Notes: a model not told the origin generated them from the sequence alone. 64,000 bases of DNA from Minisyncoccota bacterium (GCA_028690055.1 JAQVBZ010000002.1:29978-93977), one strand, 5' to 3'; positions 46,420-61,752 are shown, counted from the first letter of the stretch. Translations and numbers: made by a program.

Positions 46420-46521
46420 CAGGGGAATTGATGGCGGCTGATGTGGCCGCCTTTTGCAGATATATGAAATCGGCGGTTTTGTTATCGTTAAGTTTATGTG
46501 TGAATCATAAAAGCAAAAAAT

Positions 46522-47523
46522 ATGAAGTACGAAGATAGAGTTTATGGAGAATGCGAAATCACAGAAGCAGTGGTCTTGGACCTTATCGGGTCATCTTCTT
46601 TGCAAAGATTGAAGGGGATAGACCAGTCGGGCTATCGGGCACTGTGGGTTCAGCCGGAAACGGAATTGGGGGAATATGATAATAGCCGTTTTGCGCATTC
46701 GGTGGGGGTATATCTTTTGCTCAAAAAATACGGCGCGCCGCTGGAAGAACAGCTTGCCGGTCTTATCCATGATGTTTCGCATACGGCATTTTCACACTGC
46801 ATCGACTACGTTTTGAATGTGGGTAGTGAAGCAAAGCAGGATCATCAGGACAATGTATTCGAAGCTTTTGTCAGGAAATCGGAGATACCGAATATATTGG
46901 AAAAGCATGGTCAAAATGTCGATCGTTTGCTTGACGATGGCAATTTTCCTCTGAAGGAAAATATTCTGCCCGATTTGTGCGCGGATCGTATAGATTATTC
47001 TATGAGAACGGCAGTACTTTTCGGTGAAATCGATTTTAAACAGGCGCAAGAAATCCTGGACGGACTTGCCGTGAAAGATAACATTTGGTTCTTCAGGGAT
47101 TTCGAGAGTGCAAAAAGATACGCGGAACTGTTTAGTCGTGTCAATGATATTCATTATGCCGGATTGGATTCGGCGCGGATGTACGAAGCGGTGCGAGGTT
47201 TCGTCGTGTATGCCATGGCAAAGGATTATATTTACGAGGAATATCTGTATCGGGGCGATGAAGCGGTTATCGCGAAGATTAATGAGCATCTGGAGGAGGA
47301 TGTCGAGCTTCAGAAGCTTTTTGACCGAATGAATGACAAGTCGAAGATTTCAGAGAGCGTCGTCGGTTATGACGCTGAGGTGGTTTGTAAATCCAGAATA
47401 GTCGATCCATGGTTTTCTGATAGTGGGATATTACGAAGGGTCTCCGATGCCGATTCGTCTTGGGGAAAAGTCGTGAGGGAAAAGTTGAAGCCCAAAAGAT
47501 ATTTTTTGAAATATAAGAATTGA
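46522..47523 (+). CDS. HD-domain metal-dependent phosphohydrolase
   Basis: H...HD motif (FAHSVGVYLL...LIHDVSHTAFSH). 333 aa. Confidence 0.8.
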   Translation: MKYEDRVYGECEITEAVVLDLIGSSSLQRLKGIDQSGYRALWVQPETELGEYDNSRFAHSVGVYLLLKKYGAPLEEQLAGLIHDVSHTAFSHCIDYVLNVGSEAKQDHQDNVFEAFVRKSEIPNILEKHGQNVDRLLDDGNFPLKENILPDLCADRIDYSMRTAVLFGEIDFKQAQEILDGLAVKDNIWFFRDFESAKRYAELFSRVNDIHYAGLDSARMYEAVRGFVVYAMAKDYIYEEYLYRGDEAVIAKINEHLEEDVELQKLFDRMNDKSKISESVVGYDAEVVCKSRIVDPWFSDSGILRRVSDADSSWGKVVREKLKPKRYFLKYKN

Positions 47524-47528
47524 TGCAA

Positions 47529-47556
47529 TTTACTTTTCTTTGAAGAGTAGTATAAT
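47529..47556 (+). promoter_or_regulatory. Promoter TTTACT-16-TATAAT for tRNA-Pro(GGG)
   Basis: See 46306..46333. Confidence 0.5.
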
Positions 47557-47569
47557 ACTAATGTTCTTT

Positions 47570-47642
47570 CGGGGCGTAGCGCAGCTGGTAGCGCGCAGGG
47601 CTGGGGGTCCTGAGGTCGCAGGTTCGAATCCTGTCGCCCCGA
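47570..47642 (+). tRNA. tRNA-Pro (anticodon GGG)
   Basis: Acceptor CGGGGCG/CGCCCCG, D-arm GCGC/GCGC, anticodon stem CAGGG/TCCTG, loop CTGGGGG (34-36 = GGG), T-loop GTTCGAATC. Confidence 0.8.
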
Positions 47643-47685
47643 CATATAGTCAACTTTTTTAGAGAAGGTTGTTTTTTGTTGTAAT

Positions 47686-47964: not shown

Positions 47965-50277
47965 ATGAACAAACAAAAGGACTCTTCGCAGTCTAATGTG
48001 CCGCTTGCTTCCGAGGTCAGTTCGAGTTCGCCAAGCAAGCAAAAAAAAGTTTACATTGCTTTGTCGGCGACAGCTAGTCTAGTACTCGTCATATTGTTGG
48101 TGAGCTATTTTAATTTCACTTGGAAACAGATGGAATCACAACAGCAGCAGGAGGAACAAGTCTCAAGCGAGGAAGTGGCGGAGGAGACGGAAGAGGTCCC
48201 GACTTACGTGCTCTCGTCGCAGTTTGCCAACTGGGAGGATACGCCGGTCGATATTACGCCACAGGTCGCGGCCTATACGGTTGATGCGGATCTGGGTAAC
48301 GTGACCAATGCGGGCGATTTTACTTTGAGCGATGATGCCAAGGCGCTGCTTGTTAAGAACGCTTTTGCGGTTATATCTTCGAACAAGGAGGAGTTCTATC
48401 CGCTCTATGAATCTAATCGCTACGGACAGATTCCCAATTTTATCACTACGGATTCGACACTGCACAGCTATCATCTGATGTTTGATGATTTGCTCAAGAA
48501 ATTGGAGGAGGGCAAGCTCTCTCCCGAGCTCAAGAACCTCAACGCGGCGATGCTTGCCGACTCGCTCGCGCAGTACCAGTCTCTCAAAGGAACGGAGTGG
48601 GAAAATGCGGCTAAGCGGAATGTGGGGTTCTTTGCGGTGGGAAGCAAGCTGCTTGATCCGAACGTGAATATTCCTGACATCGTGAAGAGCGAGGTGGAGC
48701 AGGAGATGGTCTTTATCGATGCACACGAGGCGATTGATATTTCGCCGGTGATGAATATCGGTCTGTCACAGGAGGATTTGGCGAAATACGAGCTGGATTC
48801 CATAAAAGAAGATTATACACAATATATTCCAAGAGGACATTATACTAAAACCGAAGAGCTCAAGAGATATTTCAAATCGATGATGTGGTACGGCAGGCTC
48901 ACTTTCCGTTTGAAGAGTCCGGATGAGGTCAAATCGGCGCTCTTGATCAGCGAGGCCCTGGGAAGCAAAGGTAGCAGCCAAGAGAGTTGGGATAAAATTT
49001 ATGAGCCGATAAATTTCTTCGTGGGCAAGAGCGACGATATCACTTATTACCAGTTCCGCGATACGATGCAAAAAGTTTATGGCGATGAAATTACTTTGGG
49101 CAGTGTAAAGAGCGATGATACCAAGCTGGAGAGTTTCATCGCCGAGGCGGATAAATTGGACGCGCCGCAAATCAATTCAATGCCTATTTTCGATGCGAGT
49201 ATCCAGCCGGATCGGGAAAAAGAGATCAAAGGTTTTCGTTTTATGGGACAGAGGTTTACGGTTGATGCTTCTATTTTCCAAAGATTGATTGTCAGGGAAG
49301 TAGGGCAAAAGACGGATAAATGTTCTGACGCGCCGTTTGCCAAAGGCAGGGGCCTTCCGAACGGTTTGGATATTCCGGCGGCGATGGGGTCAAGCGAAGC
49401 TTACAGTATCTTGCAGTCGGAAGGCGAAACCGATTACGCCTGCTACAAGGAGAATTTGGGCAAGATGAAGACATATGTTGCCGGTTTGGATAAGAATATG
49501 TGGACGCAGAATTTGTATTGGGGCTGGCTTTATTCTCTGAAACCTCTTGCTGAAGAAAAGGTCGCCGGTTATCCCAGCTTTATGACCAATACCGCCTGGC
49601 AGAGGAAGGACCTTAATACCTATCTCGGCAGCTGGACGGAGCTCAAGCGTGATACGATTCTCTATGCCAAGCAGGCTTATGCGGAGATGGGCGGAGGAGG
49701 AGACGAAGAACCCAAAGATTACCGCGGATATGTGGAACCGGAGCCTTACGTCTATGCGCGTTTGGTGTCGCTCATCAAGATGACCAAGGCGGGGCTGGAG
49801 GGCAGAGGACTTCTGGACGAAGGCAATACGGAAAGTCTCGATAAGCTGGAGGAGATTGCGCTTGCGCTGAAGACCATTTCAGAAAAAGAACTGAATGGCA
49901 CGGCGCTTACCGATGAGGAAAATGATTTCATCAAGGCTTACGGCGGAAACTTGGAACATATCTGGGCTGATATCTTCTACCCGGATGGTGGACCGCGGGT
50001 ATTGGATGATAAGACCAATGCGCCAGTGATTGCGGATGTCGCGACCGATCCCGGGACGATGACGGCGTTGGAAGAGGGGACCGGCTATGTTTCGGAAATT
50101 TATGCCGTGGTGCCGATTGATGGCAAATTGCGCATCGCCAAAGGTGCGGTCTATTCACATTACGAATTTGCCCAGCCGATTGCTGATCGTTTGACAGATG
50201 AGAAATGGAAAGAAATGCTCAAATCCGGCACAGCTCCGGCGATGCCGACCTGGACACAGGCGTTTATGACAAAATAA
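47965..50277 (+). CDS. Large hypothetical secreted or membrane-anchored protein, 770 aa
   Basis: N-terminal TM/signal anchor, S-rich linker, acidic EEQ stretch. No recognisable catalytic motif. Confidence 0.6.
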   Translation: MNKQKDSSQSNVPLASEVSSSSPSKQKKVYIALSATASLVLVILLVSYFNFTWKQMESQQQQEEQVSSEEVAEETEEVPTYVLSSQFANWEDTPVDITPQVAAYTVDADLGNVTNAGDFTLSDDAKALLVKNAFAVISSNKEEFYPLYESNRYGQIPNFITTDSTLHSYHLMFDDLLKKLEEGKLSPELKNLNAAMLADSLAQYQSLKGTEWENAAKRNVGFFAVGSKLLDPNVNIPDIVKSEVEQEMVFIDAHEAIDISPVMNIGLSQEDLAKYELDSIKEDYTQYIPRGHYTKTEELKRYFKSMMWYGRLTFRLKSPDEVKSALLISEALGSKGSSQESWDKIYEPINFFVGKSDDITYYQFRDTMQKVYGDEITLGSVKSDDTKLESFIAEADKLDAPQINSMPIFDASIQPDREKEIKGFRFMGQRFTVDASIFQRLIVREVGQKTDKCSDAPFAKGRGLPNGLDIPAAMGSSEAYSILQSEGETDYACYKENLGKMKTYVAGLDKNMWTQNLYWGWLYSLKPLAEEKVAGYPSFMTNTAWQRKDLNTYLGSWTELKRDTILYAKQAYAEMGGGGDEEPKDYRGYVEPEPYVYARLVSLIKMTKAGLEGRGLLDEGNTESLDKLEEIALALKTISEKELNGTALTDEENDFIKAYGGNLEHIWADIFYPDGGPRVLDDKTNAPVIADVATDPGTMTALEEGTGYVSEIYAVVPIDGKLRIAKGAVYSHYEFAQPIADRLTDEKWKEMLKSGTAPAMPTWTQAFMTK

Positions 50278-50321
50278 TCAGTCCATACTCGCATATCTTA
50301 CTCACATATCTTTGATTTTGT

Positions 50322-50375
50322 TTTCTCCCTCTCCCGTCGGGAGAGGGTCGGGGTGAGGGGGAATAACAATTAATT
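50322..50375 (-). repeat. Family-3 repeat, reverse orientation
   Basis: The reverse complement reads TTATTCCCCCTCACCCCGACCCTCTCCC-GACG-GGAGAGGGAGAAAAC. Confidence 0.6.
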
Positions 50376-50401
50376 CCTTTGGTGTTTAATAATAAAGTGC
50401 G

Positions 50402-51289
50402 ATGACGAAGCAGAACCGATCAGTTGTAATCTTGGCTATGGTAATTATTTTTGCCTTGATTGCGGCAATCGGTTTTTTGCTTGTCAGAGGCAGTTTGCAA
50501 GACAGCTCTAATCCTCAAAGCAGTTTCAATAATGAAAAAGTCGAAGATGCTGTCGCTTTATTTTCGGATTTTAAAGCGTGTAAAGAAAAAGTTCTATCGC
50601 AGTACGTTAATAATTCTCATAACCCCGTGTCATTGCCGGAAGAGAGTCAGTTTTTCTGTTGGAATAAGGAAAAAGAAACTTTTGAAAAAACAGATTTCGG
50701 TCTAACAAATGAAAACCCCGATCTTTCTCGCGACAGGCTTTCCAAAACACAAAGCGCTGATCTCGATAGCGACGGCATCAATGAAGAATATATATTGCAA
50801 GGCGGTAAATTGACCATTCGAGGAAACGCAGAGACAATCTGGCAATCCGCCGACGATTGGTGGGTAGAAGATTTCGCTATCGCCGATTCGACCAATGATG
50901 GCGTGGCGGACATAAATCTCTCAGTCTGGAAATCAGGCAGTTTCGGAAAATTCAAACCTATCTGGGTCAAGAATAATGATCCCAGTGTCAAAAATCATTT
51001 TTTTATTTTCAACTGGGAAGACGGAAAAATAAAACCGGTCTGGCAATCTTCGAATCTGGACGCTCCGAATTGCCAAATCTTGATTGATGATATTAACGAC
51101 GATGGAGAAAATGAGATTATTGTCCTTGAGGGCGACTACGCCGACGTTCCGGATTGCAGTGGCAAATATATCGCGGTGTGGAAGTGGGGAGAGTGGGGTT
51201 TTTTGAATGAGTGGAGGAGCGAGGAAGGGGAGTTTGAGGGGATGGGGGTTGAGGAGGTTGGAGAAAATAAGTGCTTTATAGGATTTTGA
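50402..51289 (+). CDS. Hypothetical membrane-anchored protein with FG-GAP/VCBS-like D-x-[DN]-x-D-G repeats
   Basis: N-terminal TM; repeats DLDSDGINEE, DSTNDGVADINL, DDINDDGENEIIVL. Confidence 0.55.
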   Translation: MTKQNRSVVILAMVIIFALIAAIGFLLVRGSLQDSSNPQSSFNNEKVEDAVALFSDFKACKEKVLSQYVNNSHNPVSLPEESQFFCWNKEKETFEKTDFGLTNENPDLSRDRLSKTQSADLDSDGINEEYILQGGKLTIRGNAETIWQSADDWWVEDFAIADSTNDGVADINLSVWKSGSFGKFKPIWVKNNDPSVKNHFFIFNWEDGKIKPVWQSSNLDAPNCQILIDDINDDGENEIIVLEGDYADVPDCSGKYIAVWKWGEWGFLNEWRSEEGEFEGMGVEEVGENKCFIGF

Positions 51290-51429
51290 TATTTTATTTT
51301 CTGCGAAACGACATCTTTCGTGTGTCATCCTTGTTTCAGGATCCTCGTTATAAAAAATAATAACTAGTAATGCGGGCTAGACTTTCTATTTAGTCTTTCT
51401 CGTATGTTTATTTGTTTAAATCATATAAT

Positions 51430-51714
51430 ATGGAAAAGACCTATTATATCTATATTATGACTAACGTTACCAACAATGCCCTGTATATCGGTGTCACTAA
51501 TAATCTACGAAGACGAGTCTACGAACACAAAAATAAACTAGTGGATGGTTTTTCTGCGCAATACAATCTTTGTAAGCTGGTTTATTATGAATCAACAAAC
51601 GATGTCCGTGCCGCCATTGAGAGAGAGAAACAACTGAAAAGATGGCATAGGGAGTGGAAGATGAACCTGATAAAGGAAAATAACCCTGAGTTTGATGATT
51701 TAAATATTAATTAG
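51430..51714 (+). CDS. GIY-YIG nuclease-domain protein (UPF0213 type)
   Basis: YYIYIMTNVTNNALYIGVTNNLRRRVYEHK is the GIY-YIG motif. The track start 51412 is a TTG; the ATG at 51430 is preferred. Confidence 0.8.
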   Translation: MEKTYYIYIMTNVTNNALYIGVTNNLRRRVYEHKNKLVDGFSAQYNLCKLVYYESTNDVRAAIEREKQLKRWHREWKMNLIKENNPEFDDLNIN

Positions 51715-51747
51715 TATCGTATCGTTTTGACCTTATTGAGTGTTTCA

Positions 51748-52172
51748 TGCTGAACTCGTTTCTGTATTTTTGTCATTCTGAACTTGTTTCAGAATCTTCT
51801 GTATCTTTCGCTTTGACTTTGTTTAATTCACTTCACTTAATATTACGCTTTTTAGAATAGCGTGGAATCATCCGTTTGATGCGGGATAGATATTTTTCGT
51901 GATAGATAATGAGGATCCTGAAACAAGTTCAGGATGACAAAGTAAAATAGTAAATTGCAGAAACTATTTCTCTTGTGATGTGTCATCCCGAATCTATTCC
52001 TGTATTTCTGTCATTCTGAACTTGTTTCAGAATCTTCTGCATATTTCGCTTTGACTTTATTAAATTCACTTCACTAAATATTACGCTTTTTAGAATAGCG
52101 TGAAATCTTCCATTCGATTCGGGATAAATACTTCCAGTTATATACATCAAGGATCCTGAAACAAGGATGACA
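51748..52172. repeat. Tandem duplication (2 x ~239 bp, about 85-90% identical) of a family-2 MITE; each unit has TIRs TGTCATTCTGAACTTGTTTCAGAATC / GATCCTGAAACAAG(TTCAG)GATGACA
   Basis: Unit 1 at 51748..51940 and unit 2 at 51987..52172, aligned by eye. Each contains hairpins ATTCTGAA-cttgt-TTCAGAAT and ACGCT...AGCGT. Confidence 0.75.
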
Positions 52173-52256
52173 AATTATCTTCTTCCTTGCTGAGAGTTAA
52201 GTTGCTCTATCAAAAAAACCGCCTTTCAGGCGGTTTTTATATTGTCCAAACGATTA

Positions 52257-52451
52257 TTACATCAAATCCTTGATATCTTTGCCCTGCTTGATAGCGGTGC
52301 TGATACACTTGGCACAGACCTTGATCTTTTGTCCATCGATGTTCTTAGTCTGGATATTGATTCTCTGGGTTCTCTTGGTTGCAATGTTGGAGTGGCTGCG
52401 GGATTGGCTGGATGTTGTGCCTCTCTTGCAAACTTGACATGTTCTGCTCAT
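52257..52451 (-). CDS. rpmB: 50S ribosomal protein L28
   Basis: MSRTCQVCKRGTTSSQSRSHSNIATKR matches the L28 N-terminus (MSRVCQVTGKRPxxGNNRSHAxNATKR). Confidence 0.9.
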   Translation of the reverse strand: MSRTCQVCKRGTTSSQSRSHSNIATKRTQRINIQTKNIDGQKIKVCAKCISTAIKQGKDIKDLM

Positions 52452-52524
52452 ATGAAATAATTAGGTTATTATGTTTCGATAATTGCTACGCAATACTTAG
52501 ATATCTTAGACTATATTATTAATT

Positions 52525-53181
52525 TTGGCAAGTATGATTGTAACTATTCAGATTTTTGGTTTTCTTGTTCTGATTTTCTCGATAGTCATCCACGAATTTT
52601 CGCACGGATGGATGGCAGATCAGTTGGGGGATCCGACGGCGCGCTTTATGGGAAGGCTGACGCTTAATCCGATTCCGCATATTGATCCGCTGGGGTCGGT
52701 GATTGTGCCATTATTCCTTTTGCTGACAAGGGCTGGTTTTGTTATCGGTTGGGCCAAGCCGGTGCCGTATAACCCTTACAATCTCAAAGACCAGAAGAAG
52801 GGGCCAGCATTGGTGGCGCTGGCAGGTCCGCTTTCTAACCTAATGGTTGCTGTCATTTTTGGGGTGGTAGTAAGACTACTTGTTGCACAGGGCAATACTG
52901 CTAATATGACGATTGCACTGTTCGATTTAATTATTCTTTATAATGTCATGCTGGCGATGTTTAACCTGGTGCCGCTTCCTCCTTTGGACGGTTCCAAAAT
53001 ACTTGAGGCTATCTTGCCACAGTCGATGCGGGGGGGTATGCAATTTTTGGAAAAGAATTATATGCTCTTTTTGCTGATTTTCATTTTCTTTGGCTTTCAG
53101 TACATCGCGCCTGTTATGGCAATTCTGTATTACGTTATAGCGGGAGTTCCAGCGGGGAATATGCTAACTTTAGTATTATAA
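52525..53181 (+). CDS. Peptidase M50 family (site-2 protease-like) membrane metalloprotease
   Basis: HEFSH (HExxH) in TM1 and LNLVPLPPLDGSK (the LDG motif of M50). Confidence 0.8.
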   Translation: MASMIVTIQIFGFLVLIFSIVIHEFSHGWMADQLGDPTARFMGRLTLNPIPHIDPLGSVIVPLFLLLTRAGFVIGWAKPVPYNPYNLKDQKKGPALVALAGPLSNLMVAVIFGVVVRLLVAQGNTANMTIALFDLIILYNVMLAMFNLVPLPPLDGSKILEAILPQSMRGGMQFLEKNYMLFLLIFIFFGFQYIAPVMAILYYVIAGVPAGNMLTLVL

Positions 53182-53566
53182 TACAGACACAGCAGGAGGC
53201 TTCGATTGATTCTTTGTTATTTCTGTGTAGGCGGGCGTCTATGGTTTATTCTTTAATTTTCTTAAAGAATAAAGCCTATATCTTTTCTATTTTATTAAAT
53301 CATTTCTCATTTTTCTTGTTTTTCTTATTCTAGATTCCCGCCTGCGCGGGAATGACATAAGCTATAATTGCATAATGAGGGGGGGGTAAGTTTTTGGCAA
53401 CCTAAAGAGGTGTCTTAACCGCTAATTTTACGCGTTCTTGACATCATTCAGCCTTTCTGCTAGTCTGATAACAAGGAAAAACTCGTTAATAGCTATACTC
53501 ACATGGGTCTGCTAACCCTTGTGTGATTTTGTTTCGTTAGTGTTTTTTAAGTAATCAAAAACAAGA

Positions 53567-54001
53567 ATGTCAACCATACAACAGCTGGTTAGAAAACCAA
53601 GAAAGAGCACAGCCAAGAAACCAAAATCTCCGGCATTGCTTAGGAATTTTAATTACATCAAGAACAAGCCGACTGACGCTACCCGTGGTGGGAAGAGGGG
53701 AAACCCTTTCAAGAGAGGCGTCTGTGTTAAGGTTGGAACCATGACTCCTAGAAAGCCGAACTCGGCGCTGCGAAAGTTTGCCAGAGTCAAGCTAACCAAC
53801 GGCATGGAAGTTACCGCTTACATCCCGGGAATCGGACACAACCTGCAGGAGCATTCCGTAGTTATGATCCGTGGTGGAAGAGTTAAAGACCTCGCCGGTG
53901 TGCGTTATCACATCGTTCGTGGTGTTTTGGATGCGGGAGGTGTTGAAAACCGCAAGCAGGAACGTAGCAAGTATGGAGCTAAAAGACCTAAGAAGGCGTA
54001 G
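53567..54001 (+). CDS. rpsL: 30S ribosomal protein S12
   Basis: [12 protein letters not shown]...[10 protein letters not shown]...[18 protein letters not shown]...[17 protein letters not shown]. Confidence 0.95.
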
Positions 54002-54002
54002 A

Positions 54003-54146
54003 ACCTGTCTGAAAAGTCCTTTTTCTACTGCAACCGTAAAATTTCGGCTGCAAAAGGTTCAAGTCTCGTCTACGTTATTAACCAATTTCACTTTTTTCGT
54101 TCGAAATTTTACGGTTTCGTGACGAAAGTGACTTTCCAGACAGGCT
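54003..54146 (+). promoter_or_regulatory. Structured rpsL-rpsG spacer: nested inverted repeats CCTGTCTGAAAAGTC / GACTTTCCAGACAGG and CCGTAAAATTTCG / CGAAATTTTACGG
   Basis: A 175-nt spacer versus under 100 nt in most bacteria. Candidate S7 translational operator or inserted palindromic element. Confidence 0.4.
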
Positions 54147-54176
54147 CTTAAATCATAAATTAGTTATCTAATCAAA

Positions 54177-54644
54177 ATGGGAAGAAGAAAAAAAGTATAT
54201 ACCAGGCACTATGAGCCGGATTTCAAGTACAACAATGTACAGGTCGGACGCTTCATCAATTACATCATGCAGGATGGAAAGAAGACTGTCGCTTCCAAGA
54301 TTGTTTACGGAGCTTTCGATATCATCCAGGACAAGACCAAACAGGACCCGATCGAGATATTCGACTCGGCTATCAATAAGGTCGCACCTATCTTGGAAAT
54401 CAAGTCCAAGCGTGTCGGTGGGGCAACCTACCAGGTCCCGATGGAAGTCAGGGGCAATCGCAGGATGTTGCTAGCTTTCCGTTGGATGCTGATTGCGGCC
54501 AAAGCGCGCAAAGGCAGGCCGATGGCGGAAAAACTGGCAGCGGAAATTCTGGACATCCAGAATGGTACCGGTGCTGCTATCAAGAAACGAGACGATGTAC
54601 AGAAGATGGCAGAATCAAATAGAGCATTCGCGCATTTTGCATAG
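54177..54644 (+). CDS. rpsG: 30S ribosomal protein S7
   Basis: MGRRKKVYTRHYEPDFKYNN...KRVGGATYQVPMEVRGNRRMLLAFRWM...AHFA. Confidence 0.95.
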   Translation: MGRRKKVYTRHYEPDFKYNNVQVGRFINYIMQDGKKTVASKIVYGAFDIIQDKTKQDPIEIFDSAINKVAPILEIKSKRVGGATYQVPMEVRGNRRMLLAFRWMLIAAKARKGRPMAEKLAAEILDIQNGTGAAIKKRDDVQKMAESNRAFAHFA

Positions 54645-54654
54645 TAAAATCATA

Positions 54655-54680
54655 AAAAAGGACTTTGTGTCCTTTTTTTG
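54655..54680 (+). terminator. Rho-independent terminator after rpsG
   Basis: AAGGAC-tttgt-GTCCTT followed by TTTTTTG. Confidence 0.6.
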
Positions 54681-54848
54681 TTTAAAGGCAAAAACTATTC
54701 TTTTTAAGATAAGAGCGTGCGTTTAGAGTAGCAGCTCTCGTGTAAAAATAAATTCTCTTGACACGAAGCCTGTTATTATGTTGCTTTAAAAAATCAGAAC
54801 GGTTATAATGAAGTTAATGAAGGAGGGTTTTATAAAATTTAAAATTTT

Positions 54849-56174
54849 ATGCTCAATACAAAAAGGATTCGAAAGTCATTTCCTGCCATACGGTGCGGAA
54901 GAATGATTTCCAATAATGCTGCAAGCACCCAAATTCCGGTCCAGTTATTGGATTTGATGAAAAAGCTTGCCGTGAGTTATGATAATGTCCATAGAGGGCA
55001 GTCTCGGTCTTCGATATTGACGACAGAAGCGTTTGAGTCATCTTATGACACTATCGCGCAATTCATTGGTGCTCCGTCGCGGAGGAACATCGTGTTGTAC
55101 AGGAATACCACGGAGGCAATCAACGCCGTAATGTATTCCCTGATGACTGAATTTCACGATGGGGATAATGTGGTTACGACGTACATGGAACATAATTCGA
55201 ACTATGTCCCGTGGTACGGGCTTACGCATGAGATATTGCCTAAGTTTGGAATTAATGTCGAATGCAGGCTCGCAAAATTTGACAAGGAAACAGGAAAACT
55301 CGACCTTGATCATTTGAGCTCGCTGGTGGACAAGAAGACCAAACTTGTCTGCTGTACGGGAGCTTCAAACTTTTTGGGTACCAAAACTCCGATAAAAGAA
55401 ATTCGAAGGATAGCGGATGCGAGCGGATACAAGCAGCCGACAGGTGAGAATAAATCCTACCTACTTATTGATGGTGCTCAGACTGTTCCGAACACCTATA
55501 TAAATGTGAAGGAATTGGATATCGATTTTCTTGCCTGGTCTTTTCACAAGATGATTTCTCCTTTCGGTGTCGGAGCTTTGTATGCGAAAGAAGACTTATT
55601 GAAAAATATGAGGCCGTTTCTCTATGGCGGGGATATGATTGCCGACGGGATGGTAACGCCGGAGAAAGTGTCATATAATTCGCTGCCTTGGAAGTTTACA
55701 GCAGGGACCCCCAATATTCTGGGAACCATATTGTCCGCTCAAGGTTTGCGATTGCTTATGGATTTTTCTTTAGACAAGAAAAAATATTTTATGACTGGCA
55801 AGGCGCTGGATTCTTCCGATATAAAGACAGCTATGGAAAATATAGAAGCGCACGAAACAGCTTTGATAGGAGAAGCGATGAAGATACTGAGCGAAATTCC
55901 GTCACTTAAAATTTATGGACCAAAGGATCCCAAGGATAGGACCTCTTTGGTTTCTTTTAATTATGAAGGCATAAGCCCCTTTAAGATTGCGGAGGAGCTG
56001 AATGAATTCAATGTAGAATCCAGAGCCGGATGCCATTGCGCTACTCTGGCACACTACTACTATGGTTTGACCTTACCGGCAAGTTGCAGGTTGAGTTTTT
56101 ATGTTTATAACGACATTAAAGATGTTAGAAAGGCTTGCGATGCAGTCAAAAAATGTGTACAATTTAAGAGCTGA
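54849..56174 (+). CDS. Class V aminotransferase, cysteine desulfurase-like (SufS/CsdA family)
   Basis: PLP fold; the Lys-bearing motif SFHKMISPFGVGALY (SxHK) and the C-terminal Cys-loop region ...SRAGCHCA... 441 aa. Confidence 0.85.
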   Translation: MLNTKRIRKSFPAIRCGRMISNNAASTQIPVQLLDLMKKLAVSYDNVHRGQSRSSILTTEAFESSYDTIAQFIGAPSRRNIVLYRNTTEAINAVMYSLMTEFHDGDNVVTTYMEHNSNYVPWYGLTHEILPKFGINVECRLAKFDKETGKLDLDHLSSLVDKKTKLVCCTGASNFLGTKTPIKEIRRIADASGYKQPTGENKSYLLIDGAQTVPNTYINVKELDIDFLAWSFHKMISPFGVGALYAKEDLLKNMRPFLYGGDMIADGMVTPEKVSYNSLPWKFTAGTPNILGTILSAQGLRLLMDFSLDKKKYFMTGKALDSSDIKTAMENIEAHETALIGEAMKILSEIPSLKIYGPKDPKDRTSLVSFNYEGISPFKIAEELNEFNVESRAGCHCATLAHYYYGLTLPASCRLSFYVYNDIKDVRKACDAVKKCVQFKS

Positions 56175-56199
56175 ATCCTAAAGAACTAAAATAAAAAAC

Positions 56200-56625
56200 A
56201 TGCAACAATGTTCAATCTATGATAAATCTCTAAGATTTTCTAGATTTGTTTATAGTGTTATGGTTTTGTGTGCATATTTCCTCCAAGACAAATGGCTGGT
56301 TTTGACTGTAAGTATCTTAACGATTATGGGCGCATTTTCTTTGAGTTTTAATATTCCTTATCATCTTCACAGGCTTTACTCAAAGAGAAATAATATTGGT
56401 CCGTCAAATAAGGATTTCGGAGAGCTGAGCTTCGTTTCTGGCATTACCGGTATATTGCTTCTAGCAGGATTCCTGTTATTGCAGTATACTGAATATACTA
56501 CTTTCGCTTGGGCTTATATCTTAGTAGTTGTCGCGATGTTATTTATGGCCTGCCTTGTCGGTTTTTGCGTAGCGACGCTGATGTATATCCTTATAAGAAA
56601 CAAATTCAATCATAAACGTGGCTAA
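56200..56625 (+). CDS. Hypothetical membrane protein (4 predicted TM helices)
   Basis: Hydrophobic ORF abutting the HK gene. Confidence 0.45.
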   Translation: MQQCSIYDKSLRFSRFVYSVMVLCAYFLQDKWLVLTVSILTIMGAFSLSFNIPYHLHRLYSKRNNIGPSNKDFGELSFVSGITGILLLAGFLLLQYTEYTTFAWAYILVVVAMLFMACLVGFCVATLMYILIRNKFNHKRG

Positions 56626-57944
56626 TGAGTTTAAAAACAAAAAATCAAATCACACCGAGAGAGGCCGTAAAAAGCTGTAATTTTAATAGCAGTTGCTGGC
56701 TAGTGGACAATCTTCAATATCCTCCCTATAAGCGCTGTCAATACTGCGAACTTAAGTTTCGCAAGTGTTTGTTCCTGCAATATCAGGTTATTACTTTCGT
56801 TTTGATAGTCTTTTCTTTTTCTTCGCTGTTCTTATTCGAAAAAAGGATATCGCCTCCTGTAATCATAGTCGTATTCGTTATGGTTGTCGTTTATGGATAT
56901 TTTTTCAATAGCAGCACTGAAAAAATCATCAAGTCTCATTTTTTGGAAAGAAAAGCTAAAAATGAGTTGAAAGAGCTTTCGGAAAAGCTGGAAGAAAAGG
57001 TTGAGGGGCAGACAAGAGATATGCGGGAACAGAATTTGCATTTAGAAGAGCTTTTGAATATGAAGGGTGATTTTTTGCGCACAGTAAATCATCAGCTCAA
57101 TACTCCGCTGACGATAATGAAGAATGCCTTTGCTATGATGAAAGACAAATCTCTTTCAAGCGAACAGGGGATGAAAATAGCCGCACATGGGCTGGAAAGG
57201 ATGAGCAGTACGATTGAGGATTTTTGGAATGCCTTCGAATTGGATGAGCAGAAGGAGCCTGTGGATCTGGCTGAAACGGATATAGAGACGATTGTCAAAG
57301 ATATGATGAAGGAGAAGAAAAAAATGGAGCTGGCTATTGCCAGGAAACTATCGATCAGATTGATTAAGCCGGATTGGGCTGTGCCGAAAGTATTGTGCGA
57401 TCATAGGACGATAGGGCAGGCGATTTCCAATTTGTTGGATAATGCGGTCTTTTATACTCAGAAGGGGTCAATCAAGGTCTGGTTTGAAAAGATAAGGATA
57501 TGTGGGAAGGATTTCCTAAAAATATTTATCTCAGATACGGGAGAGGGCATTTCTCTGGAAGACCGGGAAGATATATTTGAAAAATTTTTCAGAGGTTCGG
57601 CGACAGCCTCCATCAATCCGAATGGGTCGGGGCTCGGTCTCTATATAGCAAGAAATATCGTGGAAAGCAGTGGGGGGGAGATTAAGTTGGAGCAAACAGA
57701 TGTAGGCAGAGGTACTACTTTCAGTTTCACTCTGAGAATCGCAAAATCAGAAAATAAGGCGAAGAAGTTGGCTTCGAAAAGGGCAGTCGCTGATTGCGGT
57801 AAAAGCGCTCAAAGACAGCCCGATGGTGGAAAAGTTGGCAGCGGAAATTTTGGACATCTGGAACGTAACGGTGCCGTTATCAAGAAACGAAGTGATGTGC
57901 AGGAAATAGCAGAATCAAACGGAGTGTTTGCGCATTTTACATAA
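56625..57944 (+). CDS. Sensor histidine kinase (HisKA + HATPase_c) with a C-terminal extension derived from a duplicated rpsG 3' end
   Basis: H-box FLRTVNHQLNTPL; N, G1 and G2 boxes (LLDNAVFYT; SDTGEGI; GSGLGLYIARNIVE). The last ~49 codons are about 85% nt-identical to rpsG 54489..54644. Confidence 0.8.
   Translation: MSLKTKNQITPREAVKSCNFNSSCWLVDNLQYPPYKRCQYCELKFRKCLFLQYQVITFVLIVFSFSSLFLFEKRISPPVIIVVFVMVVVYGYFFNSSTEKIIKSHFLERKAKNELKELSEKLEEKVEGQTRDMREQNLHLEELLNMKGDFLRTVNHQLNTPLTIMKNAFAMMKDKSLSSEQGMKIAAHGLERMSSTIEDFWNAFELDEQKEPVDLAETDIETIVKDMMKEKKKMELAIARKLSIRLIKPDWAVPKVLCDHRTIGQAISNLLDNAVFYTQKGSIKVWFEKIRICGKDFLKIFISDTGEGISLEDREDIFEKFFRGSATASINPNGSGLGLYIARNIVESSGGEIKLEQTDVGRGTTFSFTLRIAKSENKAKKLASKRAVADCGKSAQRQPDGGKVGSGNFGHLERNGAVIKKRSDVQEIAESNGVFAHFT
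57799..57944 (+). repeat. Direct repeat: degenerate copy of the rpsG 3' terminus (54489..54644), with indels; the last 23 codons are in the S7 frame (AVIKKRSDVQEIAESNGVFAHFT versus AAIKKRDDVQKMAESNRAFAHFA)
   Basis: Manual nucleotide alignment: gctgattgcgg...cgcattttacataa versus gctgattgcgg...cgcattttgcatag. A terminator-like hairpin follows both copies. Confidence 0.85.
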
Positions 57945-58094
57945 ACAAAGAAAAAAGAATCTTTTGATTCATTTTTTTGTTGTATGTGCTATAATAATTA
58001 TAGAAATATATTATTAGCAATAGACAGTGGATAACGGAAAAGTGGCGTTAGATTCCACCGTGAAGTTAGATCGTTAGGGGGGGGTAATAAACCA

Positions 58095-59186
58095 ATGACG
58101 CAAATAAAAAATATGGAAATTGAGAAAAAAGAACAGGAATCTCTTTTTGACTATTATCATTTTACAAAGACTGAAGCAAAGAAATATATCGTCTTGGAGA
58201 GGGTTTTTGTAGAACTTACTCCGAAGAAAATACGGCAGAAGGTAAATGCTCTACGGGGTTTGGAATTGCCGGACGAGCTAATGAAATGGATTAAGGAATA
58301 TGACAAAATAGGCAGGCGCAACCCGCTTACATGGAAAAGAACATATGGACATTCCTGTATAGTGAATTTTTCGGATGCCACGGTTGAGAATCGGGCATTT
58401 CTAGAGAATACTAAGTTTCTTATGTTTATGTTTATAATCCTCCTCGATGATGTTGCGGATGTTTGGCAAAGTAAAACCTTGTTGGATGAAATATTGAAAA
58501 TTCCCTATGAGGAGAAAGATATAGACTTCAACAAATTGGATGAGAGAGAGCAAAAATATCTGAAATTTACTTTAAAACTTTGGAAGAATTTGCTTAGAAG
58601 GCTTAAAACTTTCAAGAACTATAAAGAATTCGAGGGATTGTTAGAATATAATATCAGGCAGATGCTTCATGGGAGAAGGTACGGTTATTTGATGAATAAA
58701 AAGCCGTGGCTTATTAATAAAATCGAGTTACAGTCATATCTTACTGCCAGTGTTTGCAGCATGCAAATTCTGGAAGACTTCACTATTGATTTTATGTTTG
58801 CTCAGAACCTTGCTATCAGCGAGTATGGCAAGATAAGAGAGCTGACTTTCAGGACACAGCAGATGACTAGAAGAGGGAATTGGGTAAGCGGTTGGATTAA
58901 GGAGATAGAAGAATTGGATTTTACGAGCGGAGTGGTCGCCTATGCTTTAGATGAAGGGGCTATTACTTCTGAGGACTTGTTGAATACGACTAGGGAGAAC
59001 TATATGGTTGTTGTTGAAAAAATTAGAAAGTCAAATGCGGAAAAAGAACTTTTGATGGAGTGGGAAGATAATTTTCATAAAAATATTGAGACAGCAAAGA
59101 AGATTAAAAGTATGAATGCTGAAAAATACGTTTTGGGAGTCGAGCAGCTCCTTGGCATGGTGTTGATTTCGGCACACGCTTCGTAG
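58095..59186 (+). CDS. Hypothetical protein, 363 aa, with a single DDxxD (LLDDVAD) motif
   Basis: ORF from the track between two orphan HK genes. No confident family assignment. Confidence 0.5.
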   Translation: MTQIKNMEIEKKEQESLFDYYHFTKTEAKKYIVLERVFVELTPKKIRQKVNALRGLELPDELMKWIKEYDKIGRRNPLTWKRTYGHSCIVNFSDATVENRAFLENTKFLMFMFIILLDDVADVWQSKTLLDEILKIPYEEKDIDFNKLDEREQKYLKFTLKLWKNLLRRLKTFKNYKEFEGLLEYNIRQMLHGRRYGYLMNKKPWLINKIELQSYLTASVCSMQILEDFTIDFMFAQNLAISEYGKIRELTFRTQQMTRRGNWVSGWIKEIEELDFTSGVVAYALDEGAITSEDLLNTTRENYMVVVEKIRKSNAEKELLMEWEDNFHKNIETAKKIKSMNAEKYVLGVEQLLGMVLISAHAS

Positions 59187-59229
59187 TATATCGCGAATTG
59201 TTTACGGTAAAAATCTAAAAAAGCTTACA

Positions 59230-61455
59230 ATGGACATTAACCTTGTGGATGAGAATGTGGTGTTTGTTACTTTGATTGTTATCGCGGACATCTATCTCGG
59301 GTGTTGGGTTTATCTTAGCAATAAAAAATCGAATGCTAACAGGCAGTTTCTTGGTTTAACTCTGCTTCTCTTTTTGTGGGCATTATTCTGCTACGAGAAA
59401 AGTATTCTTCCCGCGTATATCAGTATCGTTCTTGTAAGATCCGCCTATGCCGTGGTTGCTTTATTTTTTGCTTTATTCCATTTCTTTCTTAACAATTTTC
59501 CCAAAGAAGGGAAGACTAATCGGATTTTTGACAAAATAATTCTTTGTGTCGGTGCTTTTCTCGCACTTTTTTCTTTCGATGAAAGTATGGTGGAAGGTAT
59601 AATTGTCATTAATGATAAAAACGTTCCCGCGCTGGGTGACGGACGGTTTATTTATTTGGGTCTGATATCACTTTTGATTTTATTTATTACAGTCAAATTC
59701 TTCAGGAAATATCGGAATTTTTCTAAAGTAGAGAAACTCAAGGCGGAATATTTTTTTATTGGATTTGTTATTTTTATAGCCATAAACTTTGTTTTTAATA
59801 TAGCTATTCCTGTATTGCAGGGGAATGCTCAATATTCTTGTCTGGGAAATCATGCGGCAATATTTTTTTTGGTTTTGACTGCTTATGCAATCGTCAAGCG
59901 TGAACTTATGGATATAGAGACTCTGCTTGCACAGATGTTGGTTGTAATTATTTCTTTTTTACTCTTTCTGGATATAATCTTTTTTTCAAATAGTTCCAGT
60001 ATCCAAGTGATAAAAATCGGCATCTTGCTGATATTTATTTTTTTAGGTAAGAAATTAGTAAAAAGTGTAAAGTCGGAAATCGAAGCGAAAGAAAAAATAC
60101 AGAAGGTGAATTCCAGTCTAAAGGAGAGAAATCAAGACCTTCACACTCTGTTCGAGACGAGCAATCGAGTGAGCCAAAGCCTTGATTCCAAAAAGATTTC
60201 ACAGGACGTTGTGGATAGCATACCTAAAGATTTGAAATATTTGGGTTATGCGTTCGGTGTAATCGCGCTTTATGATAAAGAAAAGGATTGTCTATGCGTA
60301 TATGCAGTTACAGATTCTGCATTGATGCGTAAGATGGAGGAAGAGACCCAGATTTCCATCAGCCAATTCCGCAAACACTTGTCTACGCATAATAATCTTA
60401 TAATCCGTACTATTAAAGATAAGAAGACTTACGTCGGCGACAATCTGGAGGATTTTTTTAGCGGTCTCATAGAAAAGGAAAAAAATGAGGAGATGCAGAA
60501 GATTTTGAAAGTGGGATCTTTTGTTTCGGTTCCTCTTTTTTCGTCCAGACGGGCGATAGGTGCTATTATTTTCGCTAATGAGAAGCAGGTCGGTTCTATC
60601 ACGGAAAGGAGCAAGGATATTATTTGCGCCTTTGCGTCTCACATCGGATCCTCTATTGAAAACGCGCAGCTTTACGAGAAGACTAACTCTCAGATGAAGG
60701 AAAAAGCACATCTTAACATAAGCTTACGTAAAGCGAATATTAAACTCAATGAGCTTTTGGAAATGAAGAATGAATTTTTACACATAACCTCTCATCAACT
60801 CAGGACTCCGATGACCGCCATCCGTGGAATGATTTCAATGTGGATCGAGGGAGACTTTGATAAGATGCCCAAGAAGAGAAAGGGTGAGATGCTAAGTAGG
60901 ATTTATGCCAGCGCGGAACGTCTCAATAATATCACTAACGATATGCTGGATGCATTGGAGTTTGAAGGTGGTGTTACGCAGATAACTTTCCAAAAGGTTA
61001 ACGTAGTGGAAATTATTAATGGCATGATAGAGACATTGAAATCGGAATATGATAAGAGGGGTTTATACCTGAGGCTCAGTGCTGTCAAGGAAGAGATTCC
61101 GGAAGTGGAGGGTGAGGCAAATTATTTGGGGCAGGTGTTTATGAATCTCATCGACAATGCCTGCAAGTATACGCGGAAGGGAGGGGTAAAAATTACTGTG
61201 AAAGCCGGCGTCAAATACGTCTACGTTTCTATTAGTGATACTGGTATCGGTATAGATCGGGAAGATAAAGGGAAAATTTTCGATAAATTTACTCGAGGTA
61301 AGAACGCTATGACGGAAAACGCTTCGGGGAGCGGCTTAGGTCTTTTTGTTGTTAAAAAGATCCTTGATGAGCATAACGGTAAAATAGCGATAAAAAGCAA
61401 TGGTGTGAGGAAGGGGACGACCTTTGAAGTTTCTCTTCTTATAAAGCAAAAATAA
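59230..61455 (+). CDS. Sensor histidine kinase with N-terminal multi-TM sensor, GAF-like domain, HisKA and HATPase_c
   Basis: About 8 TM helices; H-box FLHITSHQLRTPMTAI; N and G boxes (LIDNACKYT; SDTGIGI; GSGLGLFVVKKIL). Confidence 0.85.
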   Translation: MDINLVDENVVFVTLIVIADIYLGCWVYLSNKKSNANRQFLGLTLLLFLWALFCYEKSILPAYISIVLVRSAYAVVALFFALFHFFLNNFPKEGKTNRIFDKIILCVGAFLALFSFDESMVEGIIVINDKNVPALGDGRFIYLGLISLLILFITVKFFRKYRNFSKVEKLKAEYFFIGFVIFIAINFVFNIAIPVLQGNAQYSCLGNHAAIFFLVLTAYAIVKRELMDIETLLAQMLVVIISFLLFLDIIFFSNSSSIQVIKIGILLIFIFLGKKLVKSVKSEIEAKEKIQKVNSSLKERNQDLHTLFETSNRVSQSLDSKKISQDVVDSIPKDLKYLGYAFGVIALYDKEKDCLCVYAVTDSALMRKMEEETQISISQFRKHLSTHNNLIIRTIKDKKTYVGDNLEDFFSGLIEKEKNEEMQKILKVGSFVSVPLFSSRRAIGAIIFANEKQVGSITERSKDIICAFASHIGSSIENAQLYEKTNSQMKEKAHLNISLRKANIKLNELLEMKNEFLHITSHQLRTPMTAIRGMISMWIEGDFDKMPKKRKGEMLSRIYASAERLNNITNDMLDALEFEGGVTQITFQKVNVVEIINGMIETLKSEYDKRGLYLRLSAVKEEIPEVEGEANYLGQVFMNLIDNACKYTRKGGVKITVKAGVKYVYVSISDTGIGIDREDKGKIFDKFTRGKNAMTENASGSGLGLFVVKKILDEHNGKIAIKSNGVRKGTTFEVSLLIKQK

Positions 61456-61752
61456 TATTATGGGATTCGTTGGAGGAATGAAGTGGGTATTAAAAACAAT
61501 TTTGAGAATAAATTTAAGCTCAAGTCAATTCCTTTAATTTCCGATATTGCAACGGCGAACGTGATGGAACAATTGTCGGACAAATCTTTGCAAATCGGAA
61601 ATGATTTTGAGGGAAAAATAGCTAGTGGGGAATAACTTTATATTAAATATAGAAACTCAGCTGTGGATAGCCGAGTTTTTTGATATGTTTTTGCGGTAAA
61701 TATGGCTATATAGAGCCAATAAATGGCTATTTCTGACTTTGGGGAGATAGTA

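Follow-up and report, generated by a model that had tools for sequence, protein, structure and literature searches.

Genomic islands inserted in the 3' ends of tRNA and tmRNA genes are flanked by a direct repeat of the target 3' end, and the target gene is reconstituted; their insertion is driven by integrases and leaves exact cores. A protein-coding gene is the target in the case of e14 in Escherichia coli K-12, where prophage DNA supplies the last 165 nt of icd and the far end holds icdC, a pseudogene of 165 nt that is 92.7% identical. A displacement of 3' ends has also been described for T6SS effector-immunity arrays, for which homology-facilitated illegitimate recombination was proposed, followed by later exchange of whole modules by ordinary homologous recombination (Kirchberger et al. 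2017, PMC5361080, who cite Jackson et al. 2009 for C-terminal displacement at rhs loci).

In this work, we analysed a 64-kb window (i.e. the whole stretch of DNA, 64,000 nucleotides) from a Patescibacteria bacterium, in which the 3' end of rpsG is present twice. The locus is a real rearrangement scar and not an active mobile element; it is probably the scar of an old recombinational insertion into the 3' end of rpsG, with displacement of that end. The gene, the two copies of its end and their terminators are as follows.

53567-54001, + strand: rpsL (ribosomal protein S12; Pfam Ribosom_S12_S23, E 1.7e-34), the conserved upstream neighbour of rpsG
54177-54644, + strand: intact rpsG, encoding ribosomal protein S7 of 155 aa (Pfam Ribosomal_S7, E 4e-59, covering profile positions 2-148 of 148)
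54488-54644, + strand: left copy, the functional substitute rpsG 3' end, beginning at the third base of codon 104 and ending with the stop
54655-54684, + strand: left-type terminator (A-tract, GGAC..GTCC hairpin, T-tract; -11.3 kcal/mol, z -2.7 versus shuffled sequence)
57789-57944, + strand: right copy, the displaced original rpsG 3' end (81.4% identity to the left copy; ancestral downstream context)
57950-57979, + strand: right-type terminator, the ancestral rpsG terminator (A-tract, GAATC..GATTC hairpin, T-tract; -13.7 kcal/mol, z -4.0 versus shuffled sequence)

As in e14 and phage 21 in icd, the start of the insert falls within the final 50-55 codons of a gene that is essential or housekeeping, and the insert itself brings a replacement 3' end. 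Again the original end persists as a fragment beyond the insert, and the copies are similar without being identical (92.7% in e14, 81% here). The e14 element carries intE, xisE, phage genes and a 29-nt identical run, whereas at rpsG no recombinase or mobile-element gene was found and the left and right copies share identical runs of 14 nt at most. A conserved chromosomal operon makes up the cargo here, and its last gene has become fused to the displaced fragment. With the islands of tRNA and tmRNA genes the locus shares the direct repeat of the target 3' end around the insert and the reconstituted gene, but neither an integrase nor an exact core was found. The resemblance to rhs and T6SS loci would lie in the route: there, incoming DNA is anchored by homology with the invariant 5' part of a gene and brings a new 3' region together with downstream genes. 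The orphaning of the old 3' region downstream and the later module exchange by homologous recombination are both seen at rpsG as well. The locus fits a 3'-end displacement, with a new end and genes placed beside the conserved 5' part and an orphaned old end that keeps its original downstream context. The difference lies in the outcome: in rhs and T6SS loci the new 3' end is a different toxin tip and the protein is diversified, whereas here the target codes for a ribosomal protein, S7, whose sequence is the same with the substitute end, and novelty resides in the cargo only.

The initial annotation had reported a pair of copies about 85% identical, the right one beginning at 57799. Alignment of the two confirmed the repeat and extended it into the terminator, with a right copy that starts 10 nt earlier, at 57789, and a lower identity: over the coding part (157 nt), 29 substitutions and one 1-nt deletion give 81.4%. 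Similarity continues for about 45 nt beyond the stop codon, across the A-tract, hairpin and T-tract, to 54688 and 57988. The full repeat accordingly covers 54488-54688 and 57789-57988, i.e. 157 nt of rpsG plus the terminator. In a blastn self-comparison of the window the repeat was detected with E = 5e-40, the next best match in the 64 kb having E >= 0.6. Each copy is followed by a terminator-like hairpin, as had been noticed, and both hairpins fold better than shuffled sequence.

The genes enclosed by the repeat had been named correctly, as judged from Pfam domains (Aminotran_5, DUF4395 and HisKA plus HATPase_c), and the block contains nothing else than these three genes and a spacer of 160 nt; the statement that no integrase lies in the segment thus held.

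54689-54848, + strand: spacer with putative promoter and leader of the operon (TATAAT at 54804-54809, read from the sequence and unscored by a simple promoter scan)
54849-56174, + strand: SufS-like class V PLP enzyme (cysteine desulfurase-like), cargo gene 1 (Pfam Aminotran_5, E 8e-90)
56200-56625, + strand: DUF4395 small membrane protein, cargo gene 2 (Pfam DUF4395, E 3.8e-10)
56625-57788, + strand: sensor histidine kinase, native part (codons 1-388), cargo gene 3 (HisKA and HATPase_c, the latter ending at residue 372)

Against the NCBIfam sufS subfamily model the first product scores 321 bits, under the cut-off of 475. About 60 further loci of Patescibacteria carry the conserved SufS-like/DUF4395/kinase operon, with the DUF4395 gene placed between the two others and with chromosomal surroundings that are unrelated; in none of these loci outside the present lineage does it adjoin rpsG. 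In L100, for example, the operon sits elsewhere in the genome, after a release-factor gene, and 54779-54848 is the only part of the spacer that it has in common with the window (78.6%).

At the other end of the block, unrelated sequences are joined at 57788/57789. Orthologues of the kinase measure 374-404 aa and end 0-25 residues after the '..IAK' motif and the ATPase domain, from which it follows that the kinase lost just its stop and a few codons. Its reading frame continues through the right copy, which is translated as a 51-residue C-terminal tail ending at the old S7 stop. The first 26 codons of the tail (57789-57866) are rpsG-derived DNA read out of the S7 frame; downstream of the 1-nt deletion, located between 57864 and 57865, the following 25 codons and the stop (57867-57944) are in the S7 frame. 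Over these 25 codons the alignment is NGAVIKKRSDVQEIAESNGVFAHFT versus TGAAIKKRDDVQKMAESNRAFAHFA, with 17 of 25 residues identical. The read-through into S7-derived codons, which had been proposed from the reading frame, is thereby confirmed, and the shared frame stands with 25 codons instead of the 23 first counted.

We then compared the locus with its relatives. The gene order M50 peptidase-rpsL-rpsG is common to all those examined, and their S7 proteins are 88-97% identical to that of the window. The absence from the window of fusA, the expected downstream partner, was verified; it is a trait of the whole clade, unrelated to the insertion. The region 3' of rpsG, for its part, differs in every relative examined. 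On the right side of the insert, the window contains the following features.

57989-58112, + strand: promoter and leader (TGCTATAAT, TATAAT at 57990-57995) of the gene that follows; belongs to its ancestral junction with rpsG
58113-59186, + strand: terpene-synthase-like hypothetical protein, 357 aa from the ATG at 58113 (homologues 69-86% identical)
59230-61455, + strand: second histidine kinase, GAF-containing (Pfam GAF_2, HisKA, HATPase_c), conserved downstream context

PF19086 is present in some homologues of the 357-aa protein, and orthologues of the GAF kinase (740-743 aa) occur in L091, L088 and L177. Relatives lacking the inserted segment were found, with rpsG lying directly before the gene that follows the right copy in the window. 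In L176, rpsL and rpsG are followed by the gene for the 357-aa protein; L177/L179 show the order M50, rpsL, rpsG, 357-aa gene, 740-aa kinase, polyprenyl synthase and MraZ; L180 opens with the terminal 30 nt of rpsG, in an intact frame, and continues with the right-type terminator, the promoter and the 357-aa gene. These unoccupied sites bear out the geometry that the initial annotation had put forward, in which the insert entered a housekeeping gene at its 3' end and that end was restored.

They also tell the two copies apart. From the right copy through its terminator and the promoter to the 357-aa gene, the window is collinear with L180, L176 and L177, and the promoter and leader are homologous to positions 31-199 of L180 (74.6%), which there come after the end of the intact rpsG. 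Right-type hairpins follow rpsG in L180, L176, L177 and L091. Aligned to the rpsG ends of the outgroups L176 and L091, the right copy matches through the stop and the terminator, and the left copy only to about the stop codon. As three relative lineages have rpsG directly before the same type of terminator, promoter and terpene-synthase-like gene, the right copy is the original rpsG end. Codons 1-104 of the present rpsG are consequently the original 5' part of the gene and the rest is a substitute 3' end. Left-type hairpins were found after rpsG in L001, L174, L094 and L095-L097, and not in the outgroups L091, L176 and L177. When the 30 differences between the copies were polarized against relatives, 25 were derived in the right copy alone and only three in the left. 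Both copies rank the relatives in the same order, which places their origin in this lineage and not in a distant donor.

From these comparisons the following history emerges. The ancestral order was rpsL, rpsG, terminator, terpene-synthase-like gene and GAF kinase, as still kept in L176, L177 and L180. A 3.3-kb block (54488-57788) entered rpsG at codon 104/105, bringing a second version of rpsG codons 105-155, a terminator of another type and the SufS-like/DUF4395/kinase operon, the incoming kinase being without its last few codons and stop. S7 stayed intact because the block brought these substitute codons. The original end of rpsG and its terminator were shifted 3.3 kb downstream, still joined to their original neighbour, the displaced end then decaying neutrally while being read as the extension of the kinase; the old rpsG terminator presumably now ends the inserted operon. 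The likeliest route would be a recombination with a related genome that already had the operon after rpsG, in which one crossover, inside rpsG, would be homologous and the other junction, between kinase codon 388 and rpsG codon 105, illegitimate. Such an event would belong to homology-facilitated illegitimate recombination, i.e. a Campbell-type integration of a circularised fragment, and would make a site-specific integrase unnecessary. No genome of the donor type (rpsG, left-type terminator, operon with native kinase stop and no displaced copy) was recovered among the relatives. In the sole candidate, L094, rpsG comes with the genes of the SufS-like and DUF4395 proteins, but the contig is chimeric: it breaks within the kinase gene, of which just the start is present, and passes into high-GC foreign DNA at about 6785. 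In L095-L097 the left-type terminator precedes a UbiA-like gene and not the SufS-like/DUF4395/kinase operon; for this reason the first insertion may have carried other cargo, and the junction between kinase and rpsG may be a later deletion endpoint.

The best-placed alternative, although unlikely, is a site-specific integrative island of the type of e14 or phage 21 in icd, in which the rpsG 3' end would have served as attB and the substitute end would have lain within attP, the integrase being lost or acting in trans and the cores having decayed. Its geometry is that of E. coli K-12 e14, the unoccupied sites and the variable region 3' of rpsG agree with it, and sequence decay could have removed an identical att core. 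However, no recombinase, integrase or transposase domain was detected in the block or in the scanned ORFs of at least 120 aa of the window (about 50 of the 72 listed in the 64 kb). The identical run is about half as long as in e14 (14 versus 29 nt), and the block is exactly filled by an operon that is chromosomal and conserved at the 60 or so loci away from rpsG. Phage, plasmid and other mobile-element genes are missing from the block, the DUF4395 protein gave no match in plasmid and phage collections and the GC content of the block (0.37-0.44) is like that of the flanks. Moreover, the right junction cuts the kinase frame, which is unexpected for an att site evolved to restore genes. The attL/attR-like element of the initial annotation is therefore not supported, in view of the lack of a recombinase domain in the block and the scanned ORFs and of an identical core longer than 14 nt, the ordinary GC content and the conservation of the operon in unrelated contexts.

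An intragenomic tandem duplication that began inside rpsG and took in the whole operon, after which the second operon copy was deleted and a stray rpsG fragment left, seems improbable. It would account for two copies derived from the rpsG of the same lineage and would need no foreign donor, the third-position divergence between them (25%) being about that between the window and L095/L097 (23-25%). Nevertheless, the deletion would have to recreate exactly the junction of the right copy with the ancestral terminator type, promoter and gene, and the two types of terminator are each common to different relatives. The repeat spans no more than about 200 nt and the 3.1 kb that it encloses is single-copy in the window; the segmental duplication that had been considered does not describe the locus either.

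Turning back to the recombinational insertion, which we favour, the fate of the displaced end was assessed by comparison with the strain represented by ENA contig L001, which differs from the window by about 1.2% overall across an aligned region of 11.5 kb. The left copy differs at 1 of 157 nt (0.6%) and the segment 57945-57988, downstream of the right copy and holding the conserved old terminator, at 0 of 44 nt, whereas the right copy, the most diverged segment between the two strains, reaches 5.8%, with 9 nt changes, most of which alter the amino acid (6 amino-acid changes in 51 codons). Over S7 codon positions 1, 2 and 3, the differences between left and right copies number 7, 9 and 13. These patterns show a displaced copy that is decaying neutrally. 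That the S7-derived tail would be a functional, selected addition to the kinase is very improbable: in the two strains the frame stays open as far as the old S7 stop, which is TAA or TAG depending on the strain, and some kinase orthologues accommodate sizeable extensions at the C-terminus, a receiver domain among them, but no other segment of the locus evolves as fast as the tail, half of the tail is out-of-frame rpsG sequence and it is absent from all orthologues outside this lineage.

The two-copy architecture was also recovered in ENA contigs L001 (98.6% identical) and L174, in Logan L004 and in JGI L098 (both 100%), and ENA contig L175, which covers only the right half (from the DUF4395 gene to past the second kinase), contains the right copy. 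An assembly artefact, i.e. a collapsed or chimeric contig joined at the repeat, can be set aside as extremely improbable even though all sources are metagenome assemblies and the related contig L094 is demonstrably chimeric, since both junctions occur in different samples and independent assemblies made with different assemblers (ENA, Logan, JGI), the 98.6% identical strain has its own substitutions in the right copy, and the copies, at 81% identity and with no identical run above 14 nt, are too divergent for a collapse or a mis-join in a k-mer graph.

Finally, the flanks of L174, L175 and L099 match those of the window at about 100% identity (three mismatches in about 4 kb to the right), whereas 54518-57572 is only 56-89% identical. 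A co-occurring strain with identical flanks and a divergent operon indicates allele replacement by homologous recombination, and the comparison shows that the operon is still exchanged between strains in this way, with endpoints in the rpsG end and in the region encoding the kinase ATPase domain.

The last 157 nt of rpsG (54488-54644) occur again at 57789-57944, confirming the repeat of the rpsG 3' end claimed in the initial annotation. The two copies differ by 29 substitutions and one 1-nt deletion (81.4 % identity), and their likeness extends about 45 nt past the stop codon, over an A-tract, a hairpin and a T-tract, up to 54688 and 57988. In a BLASTN self-comparison of the 64-kb window, the repeat scored E = 5e-40, all other matches being no better than E = 0.6. 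Three genes separate the copies, encoding a SufS-like class V PLP enzyme (scoring under the NCBIfam SufS cut-off), a DUF4395 membrane protein and a histidine kinase.

Features of the rpsG locus
54488-54644: left copy, 3' end of rpsG
56625-57944: kinase ORF, with HisKA and HATPase_c domains ending at residue 372
57789-57944: right copy
58113-59186: 357-aa gene, next after the right copy

The last 51 codons of the kinase ORF are rpsG-derived DNA: the first 26 are out of the S7 frame, the 25 after the deletion are in the S7 frame (17/25 residues identical to S7), and the ORF stops at the former S7 stop codon. For annotation purposes, the 439-aa "kinase" bears a 51-residue relic tail, and S7-like fragments of this kind are scars, not genes. 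Terminators were judged by folding, in which the hairpin 3' of each copy beat shuffled controls. Folding was used in place of a consensus promoter/terminator scan, whose sites were no commoner than in shuffled sequence and which missed both + strand hairpins.

The two-copy structure is not an artefact. It was also found in an ENA contig from a 98.6 % identical strain (L001), in a Logan contig and a JGI contig each 100 % identical to the window (L004 and L098, respectively), and in an ENA contig from another sample (L174); a further ENA contig, L175, spans the right half only, and the right copy is present there. As the copies are 81 % identical, with identical runs of at most 14 nt, a k-mer assembler could not be misled. 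A second S7 fragment was present in just four of the 106 fetched S7-containing loci, all four of the window lineage. One S7 homologue (P0110, 199 aa) has an internal tandem duplication of ~70 residues, which is an artefact of assembly or, alternatively, genuine and from another lineage.

The 30 left/right differences were polarised against ten relatives: 25 are right-only, three left-only and two ambiguous. Their distribution over S7 codon positions 1, 2 and 3 is 7/9/13; comparisons of functional S7 genes gave 3-5 % change at positions 1 and 2 versus 23-60 % at position 3. In an 11.5-kb alignment of the window with L001, no segment is as diverged as the right copy (5.8 %, 9 nt, 6 amino-acid replacements); in the left copy one of 157 nt is changed, and the 44 nt that hold the right terminator show no differences. 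S7 with the left-copy end covers the whole Pfam profile. The divergence pattern identifies the left copy as the functional S7 end and the right copy as a neutrally decaying relic, and we infer continued use of the right-copy terminator. Among rpsG ends, those of the window's own lineage are closest to the right copy (81-83 %); since both copies also order the other relatives identically, they derive from this or a very closely related lineage. Third-position divergence is 25 % between the copies and 23-25 % between the window and the closely related contigs L095/L097, which gives a rough date for the separation of the copies. Divergence of the 5' versus the 3' part of rpsG, tested for a foreign 3' end, gave numbers that fluctuate over few sites.

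Sites unoccupied by the operon were found by searching for homologues of the 357/363-aa protein and viewing their contigs.

Gene order at unoccupied sites
L176: rpsL, rpsG, 357-aa gene
L177/L179: M50, rpsL, rpsG, 357-aa gene, 740-aa kinase, polyprenyl synthase, MraZ, RsmH
L180: last 30 nt of an intact rpsG frame, terminator, promoter region, 357-aa gene (86 % protein identity)

L180 has 80 % nucleotide identity to window 57915-61488. In the alignment, the right-copy hairpin (GAATC..GATTC, with A/T tracts on either side) is the type located 3' of rpsG in L180, L176, L177 and L091, and the left-copy hairpin (GGAC..GTCC) is confined to the window's close relatives L001, L174, L094 and L095-L097. 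By BLASTN against L176 and L091, the match of the right copy to the rpsG end runs past the stop and over the terminator, and that of the left copy gives out at about the stop. Taken together, terminator types and BLASTN matches indicate that the ancestral junction ran from the right copy over its terminator and the TGCTATAAT box into the 357-aa gene, so that the insert is 54488-57788 and starts with a substitute rpsG end. The unoccupied sites and the terminator types thus bear out the earlier proposal of an insertion into rpsG with its end reconstituted; the structure is no segmental duplication, the alternative offered at the time. A 104-aa S7 ending at the repeat boundary (P0108), considered as an alternative junction, was rejected: it is a false product of a 1-nt indel in L094, exactly at this boundary, where ATA-TAATT replaces ATGCTGATT and beyond which rpsG continues normally. 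L094 (ENA contig_28325) is chimeric, passing at about position 6785, inside the kinase gene, from low-GC Patescibacteria sequence to high-GC sequence encoding L19 and other genes.

On the sequence of S7 and the neighbouring genes, the window is assigned to Patescibacteria; Pacebacteria and Paceibacterota are among the source names on the homologues. An S7 protein search returned a clade of relatives at 79-97 % identity. An S7 scan of genome contigs gave no relative above 60 % identity among the matches listed, which we suspect may have been filled by the conserved peptide pattern ATYQVPME. Close relatives were obtained through the protein search and contig look-ups.

Genes following rpsG in close relatives (S7 identity in brackets)
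L085-L087 (88 %): polyprenyl synthase, MraZ
L088 (88 %): three other genes, UbiA, kinase, polyprenyl synthase
L091-L093 (90 %): UbiA, GAF kinase, polyprenyl synthase, MraZ
L095-L097 (97 %): a UbiA-like gene

The interval from rpsG to the mraZ cell-division cluster is a variable region, with at least five distinct gene contents 3' of rpsG among relatives whose S7 is 87-97 % identical. The absence of fusA downstream, pointed out in the initial annotation, is real but has no bearing on the insertion: fusA follows rpsG in none of these contigs and, as no relative examined has it there, its absence is a clade trait. In another contig, L181 (580-720), ~40 codons of a UbiA-like gene survive as a remnant in the gap from rpsG to the 357-aa gene, which adds to the evidence that this slot has gained and lost genes repeatedly. 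The 357-aa gene itself sits in the slot of the relatives' UbiA prenyltransferase/polyprenyl synthase genes, beside a conserved GAF histidine kinase. That its product (the 363-aa downstream protein) is the relatives' polyprenyl synthase at the equivalent place was ruled out, BLASTP finding no similarity; its homologues suggest a terpene-synthase-like fold instead. The 357-aa protein has no Pfam/NCBIfam match; several homologues contain PF19086 (terpene synthase C-like), and its LLDDVADV motif resembles DDxxD.

The insert opens with a copy of the exact sequence following the insertion point, the old rpsG end retains its downstream context, and neither a recombinase nor an identical core is present at the insert. 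We infer an insertion by recombination with a related genome, through one homologous and one illegitimate join. The donor would have been a related genome with the operon already 3' of rpsG, and the recipient a genome with an unoccupied site; the first, homologous crossover would have occurred in rpsG, and the second, illegitimate join would have linked kinase codon 388 to rpsG codon 105. Integration of a circularised fragment by one Campbell-type crossover would yield the same product. A scheme with one homologous and one illegitimate join has been proposed (PMC5361080) to explain orphaned 3' regions at rhs loci and in arrays of type VI secretion effector-immunity genes. The rpsG locus fits this 3'-end displacement pattern, but its substitute end encodes the same protein. 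The left-type rpsG end and terminator also lie ahead of the UbiA-like gene in L095-L097; given this gene and the UbiA remnant of L181, the first displacement may have had other cargo, and the kinase/rpsG junction may be a later deletion endpoint. The locus is a clean, polarised case of an essential ribosomal protein gene that received an operon in its coding end while the cell survived, the newcomer DNA supplying the missing rpsG end and apparently reusing the old end and terminator.

A mobile element of the att type, also raised in the initial annotation, shares the geometry of the locus, as illustrated by e14 in E. coli icd, where the last 165 nt of icd are prophage-borne and a 165-nt icdC pseudogene lies at the far end. 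However, the icd/icdC copies are 92.7 % identical with a 29-nt identical run (81.4 % and at most 14 nt in the window), and e14 has intE and xisE. The att-type element is not supported, since a recombinase, an identical core and mobile-type cargo, which define the e14-type family, are all lacking at the rpsG locus. A scan of ~50 of the 72 listed window ORFs, each at least 120 aa long, gave no integrase, resolvase or transposase domain, the DUF4395 protein matched nothing in plasmid and phage collections, and the GC content of the insert is normal. The locus represents a further example of a scar type already known rather than a new kind of element, and it reveals no new kind of mobile element and no new biochemical system.

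A metagenome scan with the kinase gave 76 loci, about 60 of which have the order SufS-like, DUF4395, kinase by TBLASTN, with kinase identity down to ~35 %. Of the 76, only L098 and L099, both of the window's own lineage, have an S7 gene close by. In L100, a release-factor gene precedes the operon, which has ~70 nt upstream of the SufS-like gene in common with the window; the left-type terminator was sought upstream of the operon where it sits elsewhere and, only these ~70 nt being shared, does not travel with it. Orthologues of the kinase range over 374-404 aa and have 0-25 residues beyond the ATPase domain, so the insertion cost the kinase only its stop and a few codons. Some orthologues are hybrid kinases with a C-terminal receiver domain. 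The three-gene unit lies at window 54849-57788 and is conserved in about 60 Patescibacteria loci of the set L098-L172, and the kinase N-terminus is cysteine-rich (CxxC) with two membrane helices. The gene tables of contigs from the window's close relatives list no response regulator, and a role of the unit in sulfur or redox sensing is only a guess.

Contigs L174, L175 and L099, from three assemblies of different samples, are 100 % identical to the window over 54290-54517 and ~100 % identical from 57573 on (three mismatches in ~4 kb), with just 56-89 % identity over 54518-57572. Divergence is greatest in the DUF4395 gene (47 % protein identity between alleles) and in the sensor part of the kinase. 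This pattern points to whole-operon replacement via homologous recombination between co-occurring Patescibacteria strains, apparently bounded by the left rpsG end and, in the kinase, by the conserved ATPase region. Chimerism of short-read assemblies could in principle produce such a pattern, but the joints are identical in two samples. A donor of the L174 allele was sought among the 76 operon loci, none being closer than 79 %. The window and L001 show patchy divergence over 50001-61483 (0 % at 50.4-52.5 kb, 3 % in rpsL, 1-2.6 % elsewhere), which suggests a recombination mosaic within the population. To our knowledge, almost nothing is known about recombination in Patescibacteria, for which the locus documents operon insertion and, as it appears, whole-operon allele replacement between co-occurring strains.

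It is possible, if rather unlikely, that in this Patescibacteria group the rpsG 3' end with its terminator is a landing pad where operon-sized cassettes arrive recurrently and independently of an integrase. Incoming DNA would use the highly conserved rpsG end as its anchor, carry in a copy of that end and displace earlier content. The varied gene contents after rpsG among relatives, the two deeply diverged operon alleles in ~100 % identical backgrounds and the single left-type end/terminator with two cargoes (the SufS-like operon in the window, the UbiA-like gene in L095-L097) speak for such a landing pad. Nucleotides 1-30 of L180 equal L095 7902-7931 (rpsG end, 30 nt exact) and are followed by the right-type terminator; the L180 run series (SRR306816xx/SRR306815xx) has accession numbers near those of L095-L097. 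The start of L180 could reflect a second two-copy locus with different cargo or, equally, a co-occurring strain with an unoccupied site. Logan contigs are built with k = 31; if this holds for L180 and L095-L097, the 30 nt would be the k-1 overlap at a graph branch point.

Elsewhere in the window, an imperfect palindrome of ~150 nt (54000-54148; 59-nt arms, 75 % complementary) fills the rpsL-rpsG spacer. It occurs once in the window, is present in L001-L003 and absent from L094 (47-nt spacer), L085 and L091 (24-30 nt), the candidate explanations being a small hairpin element that was inserted and a structure with a regulatory role. A non-coding 204-nt direct repeat (51741-51944 and 51979-52177, 82 % identical) lies between a GIY-YIG gene and rpmB, with short related matches at 38345-38372 and 51323-51351, and may be a small repeated element. 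Rfam and tRNA scans of the window returned only three tRNA-Pro genes, far from the rpsG locus; these genes (anticodons TGG, CGG and GGG; 45651-47643) are not clustered but interleaved with a NUDIX gene and an HD-domain gene.
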